10,458 bases of DNA from a virus. Taxonomy: Duplodnaviria; Heunggongvirae; Uroviricota; Caudoviricetes. This document shows positions 1,908-10,458 of the stretch, one piece after another. The position numbers were made by a program, and so were the translations under genes. Position 1 is the stretch's first letter; each line of letters begins with the position of its first letter. A model generated the notes under the pieces. The model did no database searches and was not told the DNA's origin. It saw nothing but the letters and a program-made list of their open reading frames with translations. The DNA lies in IMG/VR virus record IMGVR_UViG_2585427789_000026. One strand, given 5' to 3'.

Positions 1908-2195
1908 CTACGATGCAAGAATCCATACCAATAAGCATCCGATAATTGGGAAAGAAAAATCCATCAGGCTTGCCACATCCCATGCACGCGGATCAAAACC
2001 GCCCCACCACGGCATGTTAATCCGCTTGCCATGCCCGAACATTTCAATCCAGCGATATTCTGCCTGGGTGTGTTCACGAGCAATGAAGAACGTACAACCG
2101 GCTATCGCACCGTAAGCCCAGTTTCCGGTAAAAAGACCAACCAGTACCTGTGCGACCACAGCGCAAAGTGCGTGATGAATTGGGGTTTTATCCAT
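1908..2195 (-). CDS. Hypothetical small membrane protein (95 aa, two hydrophobic segments), joined stop-to-start to tailspike
   Basis: ORF with ATG at 2193-2195 directly abutting the tailspike TAG stop (2196-2198), giving TAGATG on the coding strand. Two hydrophobic stretches (ALCAVVAQVLVGLFTGNWAYGAIAGCTFFIA and LMDFSFPIIGCLLVWILAS). No family recognised. Confidence 0.55.
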   Translation of the reverse strand: MDKTPIHHALCAVVAQVLVGLFTGNWAYGAIAGCTFFIAREHTQAEYRWIEMFGHGKRINMPWWGGFDPRAWDVASLMDFSFPIIGCLLVWILAS

Positions 2196-4781
2196 CTACT
2201 CTATCTCTTTTGCTTTTTTAATTATCAATTCAAGCTCTGTTAAACGAGACTCAATGCGTTCACACCTTCTTCGCTGGAATGCAGCCTCCAACCACAAACA
2301 TTCATCTGGACGCAATCCCCAACGCTCACCAGCATGTACAACCAGTTCCGTGTCACCAGTATCGTATTCTTCAAAGTATTCGTGAACGATGTCTTCTCCT
2401 TCAGGGGATTTAGCTATAAATGACACCTTGCGCTGTGCCATTACAGGTTGGTACTCATCATCCCATTTATCATGACATAGCAAGCCAAATCTTGTTCCAT
2501 CTATCCCCTTTGCAAGAAACGCATCTCTTACCTGCTGTGCAATTGCTCCGAAATGCCAACGAGCAGTATCCGAACCTTTAGCCTTAATATCGGACAACCA
2601 CTGGTAAACGATAATATTTACGTCACCCCATGCGTCAAGAATTGCATCCTGATCCACCTCCATGATTTCTGAAAGTTGCTCTACTGTCAGTGGCTTTGTT
2701 TTCAATGTCTGGTCTGAAGTATTTATTGCCCCATTAGTTGCATATACTTGCGTCCACCGTTTAGATGATGTCCCACATGATGACGTATTATCTTTATTAG
2801 CACTTATATAGCCATTAACCTCCGCTGACTGACCGATATACGAATATGAAGATGTTGATAAGGGAGATTTAAATATCCATTGAGCATTGGTAAAGTCATA
2901 AATACCGGTATCACCTTTTTCACTAACATGAAAAGTTACATTCCGTAACGTATTCTTTGCATCATAACGGGCGGCTTGTGTTGTTGCCCTCGAAACAGTG
3001 AATCCTTTGTCATCAAGGTTTGCCTGCTCTATGACTTCACCACCAGGCATAATTTTACCAAGGCTTAACAAACCAGAGTTAGTGACAATATCATGGGTTG
3101 AATCAATGATAATACCAGGCTGATTTCTTGATGTTGTTTTTACATGCATTACCTGTTGTGGCATTAATGTGTAAAATGTAGTTTCTCGCCCACTATCACC
3201 ATCTGGTATGCCATTTGTATTCCCCATTACAAGGTCATACCCACCTGCAATCATACGGAAAAACATTGCTTCTGGTTCATATGTAAGATTGCTAACATCT
3301 GGCGTTCCGGTATCATTTGGATCTGCTATTTCATAGGCTCTTCCTGCACCTGCCTGTATTTGCTGCACCCCAAGATAAACACCATCAAGTGTGTACTGAT
3401 GCAAATATTTTCTGGTTGAAGAATATGCAGATCCAGCCTGACAAAAATAAATAGCAGTACCGTCACACGCAACTGTTTGCATATCCCTCACAAAATCGGC
3501 AATTTCAAATTCAAAAGTTGCTTCATTACGATAATCGTAATTGTACGCCTGCGGGTTAATAAATTTGCTGGTATCAAATACTTTTACATAATAGCGAATT
3601 TGATCTGGTGTTGATGGGCTCTCACCAGGGCCAACATAACGTTTTGCTGTAGTAATCAGCCATCGACTCATAGGGTCGGTGCATAAAACATTTACCTGAT
3701 TCTCGTAACCATCTTCCCATATGAGAAAAAACTCTGGTTCAATTTCACCACCATCAGTAGGGGTGAATCTGGTGATATACTTTGCGCGATCCTCTCCTTT
3801 AGCTGTGCCAGCTAACCCCCATATCTGTAACTGGCCTCTTGTGTTACGAAAACCAACGCGCCCTATGGTTAAACCAAGACATTGATGTCCTAATTCTCTA
3901 CTACCTTTAGTCTCCCAAAGAGGAGTTAACTCTTCATTCCCAAACCAATTATAAGCAACAACTTTATTAACTTCGTCACCAGAACTAACGCTGCCACTCA
4001 CATTTACCAAGCAATAAAGAACACTGTCATAATAATCAAGAACAGCACCCTGTATGACAGTATTTTTAATTGTTGCCAGTCGCAACCCTGACTTAACATG
4101 ATTAGGAGTAGAAGGTCTGAAACCTGTATACATCCCCTTTTTTATAGTTTGTATTCTTTTTTCAGTAAAATCAGCATCTGGCAGTAATCGATTCTCTGTG
4201 CGAAAATAGCCATTTATATACTTATTTCCATCAAAAACTTGATCTGTTATATATGTATTACCCCTTAGATCAACAATCCTTCCTGTGATTTGTTTTTCTA
4301 ACTCTTGAAAAGATAATGTGTCATCGGTGATGCCATCACCTTTTGCTCCCCATCCGCGAGGGTCAGCGTCATCACGCCACCGAGACATCTGCAATTCATG
4401 ATATTTTTTAGCACCTTCCGGGTCTTCTAATTGTTGTCTTAATTGGTCAGGATCGTACTTAAGCACATTCGGAAAATAGAACTGCTGCGTACCATATGCA
4501 TCGTAAACAGCCATAGAATGGCCTTGCACGGTAACGAATTTGGAAATCTGTCCGTTGTATACCGGGTATCCAGCAGCATTGATAACGATTGGCTGTGGCA
4601 CCTGAACATAAGTACCATCTTCTCGTTCCAGATATACTGGAATCTGGTTTTCTGGATTTACCGGATCTGTGTCAATCTTACCGATATAAATTTTTCCATT
4701 TGCTACGGTTTTAAAAGAGCTAGCCATTGTGAAGAGTTGCGATGGCATCCCAATTACAACATTTGGGGTTATATCAGGCAT
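2196..4781 (-). CDS. Phage tailspike: P22-type N-terminal head-binding domain, pectate-lyase-like beta-helix central domain, C-terminal intramolecular chaperone (peptidase S74-like) domain
   Basis: N-terminus [17 protein letters not shown]...[27 protein letters not shown]...[15 protein letters not shown]...NVLKYDPDQ aligns closely with the P22 gp9 / HK620 head-binding domain as recalled. Central [12 protein letters not shown] motif is typical of pectate-lyase-superfamily depolymerases. C-terminal ~173 aa begins SDQTLK (Ser codon 2715-2717), fitting the S-x4-K self-cleavage signature of tail-fibre chaperone domains. Start chosen at ATG 4779-4781 (AGGA 8 nt upstream); the ORF-track start at 4874 has no ribosome-binding site. 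Confidence 0.85.
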
Positions 4782-5197
4782 ATTAGTCATCCTGTTTGAA
4801 GATTTAGATATTGAAGAAAACGGAATGACTGCAGACAAAGATGCAATTGTTTTGAAAAATAACCTTCTATTCATTTAAAAACCATGCAACATGAACAAAA
4901 CGATTATTTTACAATACTCAAGAATCTTGATCAACAGGCATATTATTTATGCGCTTAATGCGTCACTTACAAAAATAAAAACAAGTAATACCTTTATTCC
5001 TATCGTCCATGATTTTTATTTTCAAACATTATTAAATAACAATTCCTATTTATAATATCTGTCATTTAATTTGCTCCAGATACAAGGAATCGCCGCAGCA
5101 TGGCTACGGTGAGCATTTGTTACATACCGAAACGGTACGATTGTTGATTTGTACAGTAGGTTTTACGATGCCATTCCACCCATTTGGTGAGGCATTG

Positions 5198-5455
5198 ATG
5201 ATGTACAGCAAATACGATGAGGCGCAGTTCCACTTGAGGCTTACGCACGAGTTGCACGCTAAGATTAAGCAGCGTGCAAAAATGAATAACAGGTCTATCA
5301 ATTCCGAAATTGTGGCTACGATGGAAGAATCACTCTCCAAACCATCACCTGTAAGCGGGTATCGTGATGAAGAAGAGAGGCTGGACTCATTAATCTCGGA
5401 ACGAGTAAAAGAAGTTGCGGCTGATATCCTTAGAAAAGAAAAAACCCGCGATTAA
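5198..5455 (+). CDS. mnt: Mnt-like ribbon-helix-helix repressor
   Basis: Translation MMYSKYDEAQFHLRLTHELHAKIKQRAKMNNRSINSEIVATMEESLSKPSPVSGYRDEEERL... aligns along its length with P22 Mnt as recalled (…FNFRMP…GRSMNSE…SKPSPVTGYRNDAERL…). GGTGAGG lies 5 nt upstream of the ATG at 5198; a second ATG follows at 5201. Confidence 0.8.
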   Translation: MMYSKYDEAQFHLRLTHELHAKIKQRAKMNNRSINSEIVATMEESLSKPSPVSGYRDEEERLDSLISERVKEVAADILRKEKTRD

Positions 5456-5463
5456 GCGGGTTT
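5442..5463. terminator. Bidirectional intrinsic terminator between convergent mnt and the antirepressor operon
   Basis: Perfect 8-bp stem aaacccgc / gcgggttt with 6-nt loop gattaa, flanked by an A-run upstream (a U-tract for the minus-strand transcript) and ttt on the plus strand. It overlaps the mnt stop codon and lies 7 bp from the stop of the 73-aa ORF. Confidence 0.55.
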
Positions 5464-5469
5464 AGTTGG

Positions 5470-5691
5470 TTAGTTATCAAAAAGTCCGTACGTTTCTTCT
5501 TCTTCAGGTGTAAGGGGAAGAATCTCTACTCTATCTATAGATACCTTTTCAATGTACCCATGAGGCCTACTTAAAATTAAAGCTCTCTCATGCCACAGAA
5601 CTCCAAGAATGTGATACCTTCCAGCATCGCCTTTTACCCTGGCTCTTCCTTTGATTCTTGGCGGCATAATGCCATATTTTTTCTTTGCCAT
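5470..5691 (-). CDS. Hypothetical 73-aa protein (basic N-terminus, acidic C-terminus), translationally coupled to the upstream antirepressor
   Basis: Its ATG (5689-5691) overlaps the TAA stop of the upstream gene (5691-5693) as TAATG; it ends just before the bidirectional terminator. No family recognised. Confidence 0.5.
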   Translation of the reverse strand: MAKKKYGIMPPRIKGRARVKGDAGRYHILGVLWHERALILSRPHGYIEKVSIDRVEILPLTPEEEETYGLFDN

Positions 5692-6416
5692 TATGCAACA
5701 TTACTCCCATGAATAAGGTGTTGTAGTGCTTTAACACCTTCCTCATTGTAGCGGAACGCTTCCACCTGTTTGCTGGAATGCGCAGATTTATCCAGGAAGA
5801 ACTTCCCGTACTGCTCAGTTTTGAGGTTGTTTGCGTTAGCAATGCGACCAATCTTGTTGGCCGTTACTCCAAGCTGCTCTGCAACCTCCCCTGCTGAGTA
5901 GTAATGCTCTTCTATTGCCGGAAGAGGTATTGCATTAAAACCAACGAGCGGGTTGATTATACTTGCTGCCGCTGTCTGCTTTGCCTCCGGCGCAAGATTT
6001 GGCATCAGATCGAACAGATTGGTAACAGCTTCAACCGTCATTTTCAATGTTCGCGCTTGACGATACTCAACAAGTCCACTCGCTGATTTACCGCTTTTAA
6101 TGTGCGCTTCCTGCATACTTTCAAGTTTGTCTACAAGTGTTCGGCGAACTGCTTTAGATTCGCGAGCAGCAACACGAAGCGCCTGCTTGATAGTCATGGA
6201 GATAACATCAATGTCAGCCCCGTTTTTCCGACCTACACTTTTTGTGTAGGTCTCGCCTTCCAATTCATCCTCAATTTTCTCGATGAATTTGTTGTTACGT
6301 ACTGATGGCTCTCCACATAACTTGCGAGCTTCATTAACCATCATCAGAAGACTTTGGCTGTCAATGGTTTTATCCGTGACAACGGATCCGATGTTTGCTA
6401 CATTCTTAAAAGTCAT
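5691..6416 (-). CDS. Phage antirepressor / regulatory protein, Rha-like N-terminus with KilA-C (ANT) C-terminal domain
   Basis: C-terminal YYSAGEVAEQLGVTANKIGRIANANNLKTEQYGKFF...FRYNEEGVKAL fits the KilA-C antirepressor domain pattern; N-terminal ...DSQSLLMMVNEARKL...VRNNKFIEKIE resembles Rha/ORF6N. Start chosen at ATG 6414-6416 (MTFKN..., AAGGA about 7 nt upstream) rather than the ORF-track TTG at 6503. Confidence 0.65.
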   Translation of the reverse strand: MTFKNVANIGSVVTDKTIDSQSLLMMVNEARKLCGEPSVRNNKFIEKIEDELEGETYTKSVGRKNGADIDVISMTIKQALRVAARESKAVRRTLVDKLESMQEAHIKSGKSASGLVEYRQARTLKMTVEAVTNLFDLMPNLAPEAKQTAAASIINPLVGFNAIPLPAIEEHYYSAGEVAEQLGVTANKIGRIANANNLKTEQYGKFFLDKSAHSSKQVEAFRYNEEGVKALQHLIHGSNVA

Positions 6417-6485
6417 TAGGCATTCCTTATGTGGTAGTAAGGGTGTGACATAGGCCGCCAGCAGCACACTGGCGGTTTTCTTTTG
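6411..6485 (+). ncRNA. Putative sar-like antisense RNA covering the start codon and ribosome-binding site of the Rha/KilA-C antirepressor
   Basis: Candidate promoter GTGACA (6376-6381), 17-bp spacer, TACATT (6399-6404) would start transcription near 6411 and end at the terminator above, about 70 nt. The geometry mirrors the P22 sar antisense RNA in the arc-ant region. Confidence 0.35.
6454..6485 (+). terminator. Plus-strand intrinsic terminator in the intercistronic region between the two antirepressor genes
   Basis: Stem ccgccag (6455-6461) / ctggcgg (6469-6475), 7-nt loop, followed on the plus strand by ttttcttttg (6476-6485). The minus-strand side has no U-tract. Confidence 0.55.
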
Positions 6486-6503
6486 CGCAGTCCGGCGCAC
6501 CAA

Positions 6504-7142
6504 TCAATGAATCCATTCCTCGCCGCGAAGTTTTGCCAGCATTGGCTGAGCGTTCTTTACGACAAAATTGTTGGTATCAAGATTCTTCATTTCACGAAGA
6601 AGTGATTTCTTGGTTTCTTCTGACATGTAGCGAGTCTCATATGCAATATCGTAAATCCTTCCTGAAAGCTCAGAACCAATTTGCTTCATTCCTGGGTAGA
6701 TGTGTTTGCACATTTGTTGACTCTTCTCCATCCACAATTGTAAGTAGCAGAGATTAACCAGCTCTTCGTCAGTGAACTGTTTTGCAATCGGTGAGCATTC
6801 TGCCTGCCGATCCAAAATATCCAGCACCCAGCGGCGGAACTCTTTGGCCTTGGGCGTAGAAGCAAACATCGCCACCAAGTGAGCGCCTCGGAGTGAGTAA
6901 ACTCTGACCGATTTGTTACGTAAGCTATTGTTTATTCCGTTGACCTTCATATTGAGGGTCAATGACATTGAGTCGGAAAATTCGTCAGCATTACGGGCAT
7001 AAATTTGGCTGATGGCATCAGTTTTTTTATAGCCGAGAGCCTTAGCTAGTTCGGTGGAGGTAAACCAGATAGACCCGCCCTCTGTTACAGGGTTAAAAGT
7101 GAATCCTTGGAAGTTATAATCTGATTTTGCTACAATATTCAT
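6504..7142 (-). CDS. Phage antirepressor with Bro-N / AntA-type N-terminal domain
   Basis: N-terminal ...FQGFTFNPVTEGGSIWFTSTELAKALGY...VYSLRGAHLVAMFASTPKAKEFRRWVLDILD matches the Bro-N / antirepressor N-domain pattern. Start chosen at ATG 7140-7142 (MNIVAKSDYNFQ, AAGGAAA 6 nt upstream), downstream of the arc stop; the ORF-track start at 7247 overlaps arc. Confidence 0.65.
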   Translation of the reverse strand: MNIVAKSDYNFQGFTFNPVTEGGSIWFTSTELAKALGYKKTDAISQIYARNADEFSDSMSLTLNMKVNGINNSLRNKSVRVYSLRGAHLVAMFASTPKAKEFRRWVLDILDRQAECSPIAKQFTDEELVNLCYLQLWMEKSQQMCKHIYPGMKQIGSELSGRIYDIAYETRYMSEETKKSLLREMKNLDTNNFVVKNAQPMLAKLRGEEWIH

Positions 7143-7220
7143 GTTAGTTTCCTTGAGTACGGTTACTGACATAGAGGCCCGGTTTGTGTTCGCGCACTGC
7201 CGGGCTTCACTATTTTTATT
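7143..7220 (+). ncRNA. Putative second sar-like antisense RNA covering the ribosome-binding site of the Bro-N antirepressor
   Basis: Candidate promoter TTGGAA (7107-7112), 18-bp spacer, TACAAT (7131-7136) would start transcription at about 7143, beside the Bro-N start codon, and run about 70 nt to the hairpin and T-tract at 7174-7220. Same geometry as the 6411-6485 unit. Confidence 0.3.
7174..7220 (+). terminator. Plus-strand terminator-like hairpin with T-rich tail at the arc 3' end, upstream of the Bro-N gene
   Basis: GC stem gcccgg (7177-7182) / ccgggc (7200-7205) with extension, followed on the plus strand by ttcactatttttatt. The minus-strand side has no U-tract. Confidence 0.4.
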
Positions 7221-7389
7221 GGATGACAACATCGCCCTTTGCCTCAAGTTTCATTAATAACTCCATTCGATAAGCTATCTCTGCCTGAATTGACCTATGG
7301 CATCTTTTTGCTGATTCGCGGATATGTGAATCAACCTTTTCTGTAAAACGAACCTGACGCGGCTTGATGGAAGATATCTTTTCAGTCAT
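7216..7389 (-). CDS. arc: Arc-like ribbon-helix-helix repressor (57 aa; not in the supplied ORF track)
   Basis: Hand translation of the complement strand: MTEKISSIKPRQVRFTEKVDSHIRESAKRCHRSIQAEIAYRMELLMKLEAKGDVVIQ-stop. It aligns with P22 Arc as recalled (…PQFNLRWPREVLDLVRKVAEENGRSVNSEIYQRVMESF…). AGGAG lies 6 nt upstream of the ATG at 7387-7389. Confidence 0.7.
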   Translation of the reverse strand: MTEKISSIKPRQVRFTEKVDSHIRESAKRCHRSIQAEIAYRMELLMKLEAKGDVVIQ

Positions 7390-7435
7390 TATGCACTCCT
7401 GTTTTTGAAAAACTCATAATCTCACTTTTTGTAGT

Positions 7436-7467
7436 TTGATTATTCACTCACACTCAGTATGAGTCAA
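7436..7467. promoter_or_regulatory. Overlapping divergent promoters with candidate operator (palindrome ACTCA-gta-TGAGT plus ACTCA repeats) between arc and the CI-like gene
   Basis: Minus strand: TTGACT (complement of 7462-7467), 17 bp, AATAAT (complement of 7439-7444), reading into arc. Plus strand: TTGATT (7436-7441), about 16 bp, TATGAG, a weaker promoter reading into the CI-like gene. The 13-bp palindrome at 7452-7464 overlaps both; further ACTCA half-sites at 7412 and 7445. Confidence 0.4.
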
Positions 7468-7488
7468 TGAATTTTTTATGGTGAACTA

Positions 7489-8130
7489 ATGAATTTTGAC
7501 GATCAATTCCCATCAAGAGTATCTCTGGCAAGACAGTCCAGGGGTATGACGCAGGCGCAGTTGTCAAAATTAGCTGGTGTTGTTCAACGTCAAATAGCTG
7601 CATACGAGGGTGGTGAGGCTAAACCACGGCTTCGGGTATTGCAGGCATTAGCCAACGCATTAGGTACTACGGCTGAGTGGTTAGCTCTAGGTGAAGGTCA
7701 GGGTCCGGGAACAAAAAACGTCATGCCTGACGTTCTGGTAAAGCAAATACCAATTCTCAAACTAGATGAAGTTATGCATTACCTAAACACAGGTGAACAT
7801 TCATCGTCTAGATTTCATCCTGCAATATACAATGTTGGTGACTCTGCATTTGCATTGACTATTGAAGGTGAAGCTATGACTACAAGTTCAGGTATTAGCT
7901 TTCCCAGAGGATCGGTTGTCACGTTCAGCCCTCTAGTAAAAGCTAAAAGCAAAGATTATGTAATAGCATCATTGGATAAAGAGCAAATATTGAGCTTCAA
8001 ACAGGTTTACATTGGTGAAATAGAGACAAACCTAGTATCCCTAAACCCAATGTATCCTAATATTCTTGTTAGAAATGAAGATGTTAGTATTTTGGCAACC
8101 GCAGTTTACCTTGAAATCCCGTTGCTTTGA
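7489..8130 (+). CDS. CI-like repressor (XRE-type HTH plus LexA/S24-like C-terminal domain) with catalytic Ser and cleavage site replaced
   Basis: N-terminal HTH (…GMTQAQLSKLAGVVQRQIAAYEGG…); C-terminal GDSAFALTIEGEAM…SFPRG…LSFKQV…LNPMYP aligns with lambda CI GDSAFWLEVEGNSM…SFPDG…FTFKKL…LNPQYP. The G-x-S-M nucleophile position reads Ala (GCT 7873-7875) and the Ala-Gly scissile position reads Asp-Glu. Confidence 0.8.
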   Translation: MNFDDQFPSRVSLARQSRGMTQAQLSKLAGVVQRQIAAYEGGEAKPRLRVLQALANALGTTAEWLALGEGQGPGTKNVMPDVLVKQIPILKLDEVMHYLNTGEHSSSRFHPAIYNVGDSAFALTIEGEAMTTSSGISFPRGSVVTFSPLVKAKSKDYVIASLDKEQILSFKQVYIGEIETNLVSLNPMYPNILVRNEDVSILATAVYLEIPLL

Positions 8131-8190
8131 TATCCTTTAGGAGGCGACACATTATCATCTGGTATCCTGCTCAAAACTAAGGAGGTTGGT

Positions 8191-8379
8191 GTGAAGAAAA
8201 AATTTGTAAACGTTGCAAAGTGCGCAATTTTTATATTTTTTATGACCTTTTACGGATTTAGTGCCGGAGAAGGTTTCGATCGTGATGCCAATGCATTCAG
8301 TTTCTTTTGTCTGTCTATAGTGGTCATAATTGTATGGGTGGAATTAAAGCAAACATTGTTTCATGTGCTAAGGAAATAA
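8191..8379 (+). CDS. Hypothetical small membrane protein (62 aa) downstream of the CI-like repressor
   Basis: GTG start 5 nt after a strong TAAGGAGG (8178-8185). Lys-rich N-terminus followed by two hydrophobic segments. Same strand as the CI-like gene, 60 bp downstream. Confidence 0.5.
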   Translation: MKKKFVNVAKCAIFIFFMTFYGFSAGEGFDRDANAFSFFCLSIVVIIVWVELKQTLFHVLRK

Positions 8380-8396
8380 CCATCCATGGCATTTAG

Positions 8397-8931
8397 TCAC
8401 TGCTGTGTTGCCTCAGTGGCAAGCAGCGGTCTGATGGCATTTGCAGCGTTACTTAATGCTCTTTCATAGGCTGGCGTTCCTGCTTTGGTGTTTGCCAGAC
8501 GTAAGAGCGCATTCCTGGCCATAGGGCTTTCATAAACCCTCGACATAAGGCCAATCCCTGTTTCCCCAGCCAATAGCGCGCCTCCGGTTTTTAGGTTACC
8601 AATAACCCTTACCAAAGGCGCGAGTGTCATGCCAGTCTTCGTCACAACATTAGCCTCAGATGCTCTTTTGGTAGCATCGAGAATAGATAACATCCCCTCT
8701 ATCTCTTTTCCGTTCTTCCCACCAAATACAGTTTTAAACACCTGACCATTTGCTTGTTTTTGCAGCTTGCCAAGCTCGGTCATCATTTTCTGAGGGCTGT
8801 CACCTACCTTGTCAGCTATTTTGCTGATATATGCCGCCCTTAGCATGTCTTTACCTTTTTGATCGAGTTTCCCGTACAATCGAGCTATATCTGACCCATA
8901 TTGTCCATACACAATGGTATTTACAGCCTCG
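8397..8931 (-). pseudogene. 3' fragment of a phage late gene (putative DNA-ejection / internal virion protein, gp16-like by position), truncated by IS66 insertion
   Basis: The reading frame stays open upstream of the listed GTG (8912) straight into the IS66 end, with no convincing ribosome-binding site. The protein is low-complexity and Ala/Gly/Lys-rich. The gp16 assignment rests only on position relative to P22 gene order. Confidence 0.4.
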
Positions 8932-10458
8932 GTAAGCGGCTCGCCAGAACCGTATTGATATTTACTGAGAGGTCAGATCAACTTTCCAGGGCAACAGATC
9001 GCGTACCCGGTTTGCCGGCCAATCCTGGATATGCTCAATGACGTAACGCAGCCATTTTTCTGGTTCCACATTGTTCAGACGGCATGTGCCGATCAGCGAG
9101 TACAACACCGCCGCATGTTCGCCACCGCTGTCGGAACCCGCGAACAGCCAGTTTTTCCGGCCTACGGCCACTCCCCGTAAGGCGTTCTCTGCGATGTTGT
9201 TGTCGATTTCCACCCAGCCATTACTGCAGTACACGTTCAGGCCATCCCACTGTTTCAGCAGGTATGCGAACGCTTTTGCCGTATCCGAGTGACGCGACAG
9301 TGTTTTCATCTGAGTCTGTATCCAGTCATACAGTGACTGCATCAGTGGCGCGGCTCTGGCTTTTCTTGCCGCCAGACGCTGTTCTGCTGAACATCCCCGG
9401 ACTTCTGCCTCGATGGCATACAGTTCACCGATACGCTGCAGGGCTTCCGTGGTGATGTCGGTGGGCACTCTTGCATGCACATCGTGGATTTTTCTCCGGG
9501 CATGAGCCATACACGCGGCTTCCGTTATTCTGCCGGATTCGTATAACACCCGGTAACCACCGTAAGCATCGGCCTGAAGCACACCGCTGTAACCGGCCAG
9601 ATGATTTTGTGGATGGATACCTTTCCGGTCCGGTGAGTACGCGAACCAGACCGCCGGGGGCATTTCCGAACCGGCGTTACGGTCATCACGGACGTAGACC
9701 CACAGCCGGGCGGTCCGGGTTTTACCGCTGCCCGGCTCCTGGACCGGGACGGGGATATCATCAGCATGGACTTTACCGGGCATCAGCACATACTGGCGCA
9801 GGACGTCATACAGCGGCTCCAGCAGTTCAGCAACGGCACCTGTCCAGCGCCCCAGCGTGGCGCGGCTCAGCTCCACGCCCTGGCGACGGTATATTTCTGA
9901 CTGGCGGTATAACGGCAGATGGTCTGCATATTTCCCGGTAACAACATGGGCCAGAAGCCCCGCTCCGGCATAACTGCGTGCAATGGGTTTTGAAGGTACT
10001 GTTGCCTGCACGATATGGTCGCACCGACAACAGGCCAGTTTCGGACGTTGTGTTTCGATAACCTTAAAGGCGCTGCTGATAAGCTCCAGTTGCTCTGACA
10101 CATCACACCCCAGAGGACTGAGGTCACCACCACAGGCCGGGCAGCATTCCTCTTCCGGCCGGATGACCCGGGTTTCACGGGGAAGTGAGGCCGGTAACGG
10201 TTTACGGGCTGAAGACTGGCGCAGGGCGGATGGCAGTACCGGGTCATATTGCTCACCCAGCGTTTCCGCCATTTCTTCCTGAAGTGCGCTGATTCGCTCC
10301 TGTGCTTCCTGTATCTGCCGTTCGGTTTTAGCGCGAAGTTTTTCTGAGCTTTTACCGAACTGCATGCGCTGCAGTTTCGCAACCAGCGCCTTCAGCCGGT
10401 TGATTTCGGAAGCATAAGCCGCCACCCGCTGTGAGAGCAGGCGGTTGTATTTCGCCAT
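8932..10458 (-). mobile_element. IS66-family insertion sequence, right end, continuing beyond the window
   Basis: GC-rich block beginning GTAAGCGGC at 8932, consistent with the GTAA terminus typical of IS66-family inverted repeats as recalled, 30 bp from the transposase stop. Sharp composition change from the AT-rich phage sequence. Confidence 0.75.
8962..10458 (-). CDS. tnpC: IS66-family transposase (TnpC/orf3), N-terminally truncated by the window edge
   Basis: 498-aa ORF ending ...[11 protein letters not shown], with leucine-zipper-like N-region, CxxC...CxC zinc motif (CPACGG...CCRCDH) and a conserved catalytic core. The M at 10458 corresponds to an internal position in full-length IS66 TnpC as recalled, so the true start lies outside the window. 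Confidence 0.9.

Follow-up and report, generated by a model that had tools for sequence, protein, structure and literature searches.

In phage P22, the Arc operator Oarc lies between the -35 and -10 hexamers of Pant, and Mnt binds downstream of the transcription start. Other antirepressor modules are under SOS control, such as the LexA-repressed antirepressors of the Gifsy phages, Tum of phage 186 and Ant of SPC32H. Here we describe positions 7216-7488 of a 10,458-nucleotide stretch of Caudoviricetes DNA (IMG/VR record IMGVR_UViG_2585427789_000026; hereafter the window, numbered from its first letter), which we read, with moderate confidence, as the control region of a variant immI in a prophage of the JEP4/Escherichia coli HS type. 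In this reading a 57-residue ribbon-helix-helix (RHH) protein, RHH57, would play the part of Arc, and a divergently encoded CI-like protein that of Mnt. The window belongs to a P22-like (Lederbergvirus) prophage adjoining dacD; its positions 5000-8400 match Escherichia phage JEP4 and several E. coli chromosomes with 100% identity, and positions 7216-7700 match the prophage of E. coli HS with 99.2% identity. The region sits between a gene 16 homologue and the tailspike gene, a slot described as the hyper-variable 'ant moron' or immI region, where P22 carries its immI (Villafane et al., 2008, PMC2629481). According to the same work, the ant moron of HS-1 contains antirepressor genes and apparently no arc, and its control must differ from that of P22.

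A resemblance to the Pant/Pmnt region of P22 had been suggested in a preliminary description of this DNA, and it has proven closer than proposed. As in P22 and epsilon34, a small RHH gene is followed by ant in one operon between gene 16 and the tailspike gene, a repressor gene diverges about 100 bp away, a strong promoter is overlapped by a dyad, and a homologous Psar/sar element lies over the ant ribosome-binding site. A further comparison is with a related O111 prophage (locus L003), which carries the same sar/ant/ant2/p73/mnt2 block after a genuine 57-residue Pfam-Arc gene and a divergent mnt pseudogene, and whose homology to the window stops at about position 7222. Since true arc and mnt genes are found there at the same junction, RHH57 and the CI-like gene constitute a cassette standing in the place of arc and mnt. 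Some 90 E. coli genomes, that of L003 among them, match only positions 7150-7222 of the window, and among the matches listed an 'Arc family' gene is annotated there. There are also differences from P22 and epsilon34. The divergent gene is not an RHH-type mnt: a CI-like protein with helix-turn-helix (HTH) and S24 domains replaces it, and an extra mnt homologue is located instead at 5198-5455, adjoining the tailspike gene. Arc is replaced by a family that falls below the Pfam Arc threshold and is only remotely alignable to it, the operators bear no sequence relationship to the P22 ones, and the operon holds two antirepressor genes and a gene for a 73-residue protein.

The sar/ant part of the module is kept. 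Downstream of the RHH57 gene, in the same operon on the minus strand, come antirepressor 1 (6504..7142; Pfam Bro-N and P22AR_C, PHROG anti-repressor Ant), antirepressor 2 (5691..6416; phrog_1726, E=2e-102) and the 73-residue gene that closes the operon (5470..5691; phrog_4977), ahead of an intrinsic terminator (5442..5463) that probably works in both directions, since it lies behind the mnt homologue too. A Psar-like antisense promoter, TTGGAA-18-TGnTACAAT, lies on the plus strand within the first codons of ant (7107..7136) and aligns to the annotated epsilon34 Psar; its extended -10, which falls in codons 2-5 of ant, persists in different Ant families. It would produce a sar-like antisense RNA (7143..7217, plus strand) across the ant ribosome-binding site, with hairpins at 7143-7170 and 7174-7208 followed by a T-run that overlaps the RHH57 stop codon. 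The fold of this RNA has a z-score of -5.7, and its terminator helix shows compensatory changes in 6 of 11 pairs, with G-U pairs that are valid on the antisense strand only. No match came out of an Rfam scan of the entire window at E<=1, and the identity of the RNA therefore rests on the alignment of positions 7085-7225 (plus strand) to the annotated epsilon34 Psar/sar.

The RHH57 gene opens the operon at 7216..7389 on the minus strand, just as the preliminary description had it, with an ATG start and a Shine-Dalgarno sequence AGGAG (7396..7400) 6 nucleotides ahead of it; a (G)AGGAG site is kept in all diverged relatives. The statement that the gene had been missed holds for the open reading frame (ORF) track used on that occasion and not for public records, where it is annotated as RefSeq WP_021518013.1 and, in phage JEP4, as JEP4_15, both times as a 'hypothetical protein'. 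Judging by its substitution pattern, the gene is real and under strong purifying selection: against relatives at 68-82% nucleotide identity, third codon positions carry 30 of 41 differences (L004) and 33 of 51 (L005), and the ratio of nonsynonymous to synonymous substitution rates (dN/dS) is 0.02-0.12 where measurable. The protein belongs to a family of its own, phrog_10182, listed as 'unknown function', for which an exhaustive profile search recovered only ten clusters among 1.8 billion representatives.

What kind of protein it is can be approached through profiles and through fold prediction. All the weak library matches of RHH57, which include NCBIfam TprA and PHROG Mnt-like and Arc-like families, point to RHH families. 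A profile of its family with distant clusters added (A4) matched AmrZ (E=7.6e-6), pArc (1.3e-3) and Arc (0.05) in the PDB, and hhalign aligned the family to epsilon34 Arc over the whole domain (columns 7-54 on residues 5-50; probability 73%, E=3e-5), identity in the alignments to Arc being 26-28%. An AlphaFold monomer prediction made with a broader alignment (predicted local distance difference test, pLDDT, 84.5) places an extended segment at residues 1-16, a helix at 17-29, a loop C30-H31-R32-S33 and a second helix at 34-51, hence the strand-helix-loop-helix order of the fold, and a Foldseek search of the PDB with this model returned RHH chains for all of the top 23 matches, AmrZ and Arc leading. 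In the N-cap before helix B, R32 is invariant and S/T33 conserved, with Gly changed to His. The claim of an Arc-like RHH protein is thus upheld by profile and fold as one of remote homology, and the data support RHH57 as a distant protein of the Arc/AmrZ type. Its closest solved relative by both measures is AmrZ of Pseudomonas (PDB 3qoq; fold probability 0.99, TM-score 0.66-0.77), with which it has the pattern VR(F/L)xE...HRS(I/M)xxEI in common; AmrZ, however, is encoded on the chromosome, acts as a global regulator and has a C-terminal oligomerisation domain; its genomic context is unrelated.

Upstream of the gene, a sigma-70 promoter, TTGACT-17-AATAAT (7439..7467, minus strand; -35 at 7467-7462, -10 at 7444-7439), is the proposed analogue of Pant. 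It is the top match of a 3.7-kb promoter scan, at 10/12, and its predicted transcript start near 7432 would give RHH57 a 5' untranslated region (UTR) of about 43 nucleotides. A promoter of 9-10/12 occupies the equivalent place in every type of the cassette (A, B, B' and C alike), and the end of its -10 lies 49-51 nucleotides ahead of the ATG. As previously noticed, it overlaps a palindrome, ACTCA-gta-TGAGT (ACTCAgtaTGAGT / ACTCAGTATGAGT, 7452..7464), which covers part of the -35 hexamer and of the spacer and is a candidate operator; the exact ACTCAGTATGAGT occurs once in the window and once in the 39-kb JEP4 genome. The several ACTCA repeats mentioned together with it amount to four copies of ACTCA/TGAGT in the 99 nucleotides of 7390-7488 (at 7412, 7446, 7452 and 7460), a number reached in 0.02% of dinucleotide shuffles (p=2e-4, for a motif picked post hoc). 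One of them, an extra direct copy at 7446..7450 on the plus strand, forms CACTCA CACTCA with 7452-7456 and a 19-bp near-dyad with 7460-7464. Another falls within a second dyad, ATGA-GTTTT-TCAA (ATGAGTTTTTCAA, 7405..7417, minus strand), which lies in the 5' UTR at about +16 to +28 and is the proposed operator of RHH57. A ATGAATTTT box (7467..7475, plus strand) abuts the -35 hexamer and recurs at the CI-like start codon (7489-7497); all 3 ATGARTTTT copies of the window fall in 7409-7497, with 0.45 expected per window, and 3 of the 4 in the JEP4 genome belong to this control region. Among type-A relatives, the 99-nucleotide intergenic region varies at five positions only (-86, -69, -68, -67 and -18) and is more conserved than the flanking genes, which differ by 4-7%; the variation clusters at the palindrome centre (-69/-68/-67). 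The weaker divergent promoter attributed to the CI-like gene was not confirmed: TTGATT(7436-7441)-16/17-TATGAG(7459-7464) scores 8/12 only, its -10 lacks the final T, it is further damaged in the near-identical L027 and L030, and it has no positional counterpart in the other types. In terms of the Pant/Pmnt pair, the Pant-like promoter is conserved and the Pmnt-like candidate is not. We also considered ATGAGTTTT as the start of a leader peptide and rejected it: its frame agrees with that of the gene in type B and disagrees in type A, where the ORF has 11 codons, which does not favour a coding feature that is conserved.

The types are the means by which we assigned the two dyads to the two regulators. 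The control region reads TTGACTCAtacTGAGTgtgagtgAATAAT in type A (E. coli/Salmonella), TTGACATATGAAwAATTCATATTAATAT in type B (Klebsiella, Pantoea) and TTGACTCATaaaatataATGAccAATACT in type C (Yersinia). In each of them the promoter spacer holds a dyad, the sequence of which differs from type to type, and within one type its variation sits at the dyad centre. The element ATGA-N4/5-TCA, on the other hand, has a single copy in each control region, whether of type A, B, B' or C, against a background of 0.036 per 105 nucleotides; types A and C have it in the 5' UTR, and type B has it in the spacer. RHH57 itself shows 81-100% conservation and an invariant strand, K-P-R-Q-V-R-F, which reads K-S-R-Q-V-R-F in the more divergent type-B' copies (L006 and L041; 63% identity). 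At a further locus (P0031), where the RHH protein has the RQVRF strand and the CI-like recognition helix is different, the element is found twice; it is absent from the control regions of three loci with a differing RHH strand. Because ATGA-N4/5-TCA follows the RQVRF strand, we take the 5' UTR dyad at 7405-7417 as the probable operator of RHH57 and the spacer palindrome ACTCAnnnTGAGT as the probable site of the CI-like protein, both by comparison of sequences and with moderate confidence. An assignment through covariation with the CI-like recognition helix is impossible, this helix being invariant across types, and a general operator in the form of a 'TGAR array' was discarded, its enrichment being significant in type A but in neither type B nor type C. 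A scan of the JEP4 genome for other operator targets gave none that was convincing.

The divergent gene (7489..8130, plus strand; Pfam HTH_3 and Peptidase_S24) encodes a CI/LexA-like repressor of 213 residues, the proposed Mnt analogue, with a 434-type HTH and a lambda-CI-like S24 domain. Autocleaving repressors of the LexA/CI (S24) class have a Ser nucleophile and a Lys base. In the window's protein the Lys is kept (FKQ) and the catalytic Ser is changed to Ala at residue 129, where EGEAMT corresponds to EGNSMT (Ser149) of lambda CI. With the nucleophile lost, self-cleavage is not expected, and we predict from this substitution that in the P22-like lineage the protein is a non-cleavable, SOS-blind secondary repressor. 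The proteins of types B and C read GESM or GDSM and retain the Lys, and as far as these motifs tell they may be SOS-responsive; the primary C2 repressor of JEP4, which is 26% identical to the CI-like protein, has GDSM. There is here a likeness to the SOS-controlled modules, in which the antirepressor is silenced by LexA or a LexA-like repressor, and cassette types B and C keep the Ser-Lys dyad. However, the repressor described here is phage-encoded, dedicated to the cassette and paired with an RHH protein and an antisense RNA, and the window's type has Ala for the nucleophile. Between types, the CI-like proteins are 45-46% identical overall (about 65% in the N-terminal domain, 35-39% in the C-terminal one). 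The start of the protein is annotated in two ways: the JEP4 record uses an internal Met (7561), which deletes HTH helix 1, and PGAP uses 7489. The longer form is supported by an N-terminus, M(N/S)FD..F..RV, that is conserved across the diverged types.

The association between these genes is constant. A divergent CI-like gene lies about 100 bp upstream of the RHH57 homologue in 52 of 52 close loci, and an antirepressor-family gene lies about 75 bp downstream in all those examined, be it of the Bro-N/P22AR_C or of the P22_AR_N family, with KilA-N/ANT as a second gene further down. The order of an HTH(-S24) repressor, a small RHH gene and antirepressor genes is preserved in four relatives with only 35-43% identity as well. 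Cassettes of types B and C (L004, L005, L038, L039) are flanked by genes for tape-measure-like, lambda-like tail and baseplate-like proteins; the cassette thus moves between phage types, as these lie in phages that are not P22-like. It is also rare, being found in 28 of 5,426 complete E. coli genomes and in 1 of 50,697 phage records. CUS-3, named alongside HS-1 in the 2008 paper (PMC2629481), was considered as a bearer and set aside: its ant moron consists of ant, a 480-bp unannotated stretch and two mnt genes, without an RHH57 homologue. A search for related loci started from P0033 led to one high-GC locus that was uninformative. Both kinds of cassette are present in one genome (L066, 699-4395), where a classical mnt/mnt | arc-ant module lies beside an HTH | RHH57-family module with pRha and ORF6N/P22AR_C genes after it.

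A real gene, its class of fold, a kept synteny, a conserved promoter and dyads and the homology of sar and ant are established; upon them we build a scheme in which every binding and regulatory step is taken by analogy from P22. The minus-strand promoter would drive RHH57, both antirepressors and the 73-residue gene as far as the terminator. In the lysogen, the CI-like protein would most likely keep this promoter off, and upon infection, or when the repressor is lost, the operon would fire. RHH57 would then accumulate and most likely shut its own operon after a burst of expression, while the sar-like RNA would limit the translation of ant.

Several results weigh against this scheme. RHH57 scores 16.0 bits (E=0.011) with Pfam Arc (PF03869), below the cut-off of 20.4, and its best single Pfam match is to another family, ParD_like, also below threshold (19.8 bits for a cut-off of 23, E=8e-4). 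A first AlphaFold run, with 24 near-identical sequences, gave a single long helix; we take it as an artefact of the shallow alignment or of modelling a monomer, the broader alignment having given the RHH fold. The promoter scan yielded 7 promoter-like matches where 7.2 were expected, which is chance level, and the reality of the minus-strand promoter therefore rests on its conservation. For the CI-like gene, the analysis turned up no convincing promoter. As for the operators, the correlation between strand and dyad comes from two independent RQVRF lineages only, and the strict form TCA-N2/3-TGA is missing in type C and in the variant L027. Finally, the spacer dyads differ from type to type whereas the CI-like recognition helix, G[VI]VQRQIAAYE, is invariant, so that assigning the palindrome to this protein relies on the other parts of its N-terminal domain.

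In an alternative that we consider rather unlikely, the system is the same and its geometry that of P22: ACTCAgtaTGAGT and the TGAGT repeats would be the operator of RHH57, and the CI-like protein would bind downstream of the transcription start. The palindrome is indeed placed as Oarc is in P22, and the epsilon34 annotation puts arcO inside the Pant/Pmnt promoter stretch. The half-sites are 8 bp apart, centre to centre, which would be a better fit for tandem RHH dimers than for an HTH dimer of the classical kind. Such spacing of tandem RHH dimers is known from MetJ and omega. In type A, TGAR units number 9 where 3.7 are expected (p ~7e-4), and in L027 and L030 a change in a palindrome arm co-occurs with T2A, T16A and K18N in RHH57, the CI-like N-terminal domain being unchanged or different by one residue (L13M in L027). 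However, the enrichment in TGAR is not significant in types B and C, the beta-strand of RHH57 is invariant though the spacer dyads differ completely among types A, B and C, and it is ATGA-N4/5-TCA that goes with the RQVRF strand. This is what makes us prefer the 5' UTR dyad as the site of RHH57.

It is less likely still, and in our view improbable, that RHH57 binds DNA without being an autorepressor, and instead activates the CI-like gene, represses Psar or acts at another promoter of the phage. An activator may be needed if the CI-like gene has no good promoter, and the far greater conservation of RHH57 across types, when set against that of the CI-like protein, hints at a conserved partner or target. 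However, the palindrome occurs nowhere else in the JEP4 genome, most of the ATGARTTTT boxes of that genome are in this region, and its other three ATGA-N4/5-TCAW matches show no signs of being regulatory sites. Also, RHH proteins encoded first in such operons, like Arc and CopG, classically repress their own synthesis. That RHH57 could be the antitoxin of a ParD-like toxin-antitoxin pair, as its best Pfam match might suggest, is extremely improbable, for the ParD N-terminal domain is itself an RHH and the match reflects the fold only, the downstream genes at every locus examined are of antirepressor type (Bro-N, P22AR_C, P22_AR_N, KilA-N/ANT, pRha) and not toxins, and PADLOC returned generic HTH matches and no toxin-antitoxin or defence system.

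The surroundings of the module deserve a few words. The gene 16 homologue, encoding a DNA-transfer protein, is cut here to 8397-8912 by an IS66-family element whose transposase gene occupies 8913-10458 (Pfam E=1e-103); in JEP4 and strain E100341 the gene measures 1866 nucleotides. The prophage copy in the window is probably defective because the insertion splits gene 16. The E. coli HS prophage phiHS4, in contrast, can reportedly be induced and is active (bioRxiv 10.64898/2026.05.19.726188). A 62-residue hydrophobic ORF (8191-8379, plus strand; phrog_21338, unknown function) is located between the CI-like gene and gene 16 and may be the counterpart of the 'orf62' noted in the ant moron of phage L. 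On the other side, the mnt homologue (5198-5455, plus strand) encodes a protein with a Pfam Arc match at 9e-15 and a C-terminal tail like that of P22 Mnt; it runs convergently to the ant operon, has the terminator at 5442-5463 in common with it and is without an arc-ant pair alongside. The tailspike gene (2196-4874, minus strand; starting at 4781 and not 4874 according to PGAP) encodes the P22 head-binding domain together with an endosialidase N-terminal extension and, at the C-terminus, an S74 chaperone domain. A minus-strand promoter match of 9/12 at 4934-4906 faces it, and a 95-residue ORF without family match follows it (1908-2195, minus strand).

A literature search found no paper describing this cassette, and its analysis reveals no new principle. 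Nevertheless, it offers an answer to the puzzle posed by HS-1: an Arc analogue would exist, from a family (phrog_10182) too diverged for recognition, and a CI-like protein would replace Mnt. A likely function can hence be given to this small family of proteins, and the comparison shows that regulators of different folds can be exchanged at one immI junction while the sar/ant part stays. Going further, and only tentatively, since we find the idea possible but doubtful, the HTH-S24 repressor, the RHH57-family protein and the sar-like RNA with its antirepressor(s) could form a portable cassette of three layers, SOS-blind in the P22-like lineage through the change from Ser to Ala. If so, it would insert into unrelated temperate phages of Enterobacterales, P22-like ones as well as those encoding lambda-like tails or Mu/P2-like baseplates, and its two classes of operator would appear to swap places between spacer and 5' UTR from one lineage to another. 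Most lineages would keep the Ser-Lys dyad, and RecA-stimulated self-cleavage of the repressor would free the antirepressor directly. The P22-like lineage of E. coli and Salmonella, having fixed the change from Ser to Ala, would instead have turned the cassette into an SOS-blind, Mnt-like maintenance switch.

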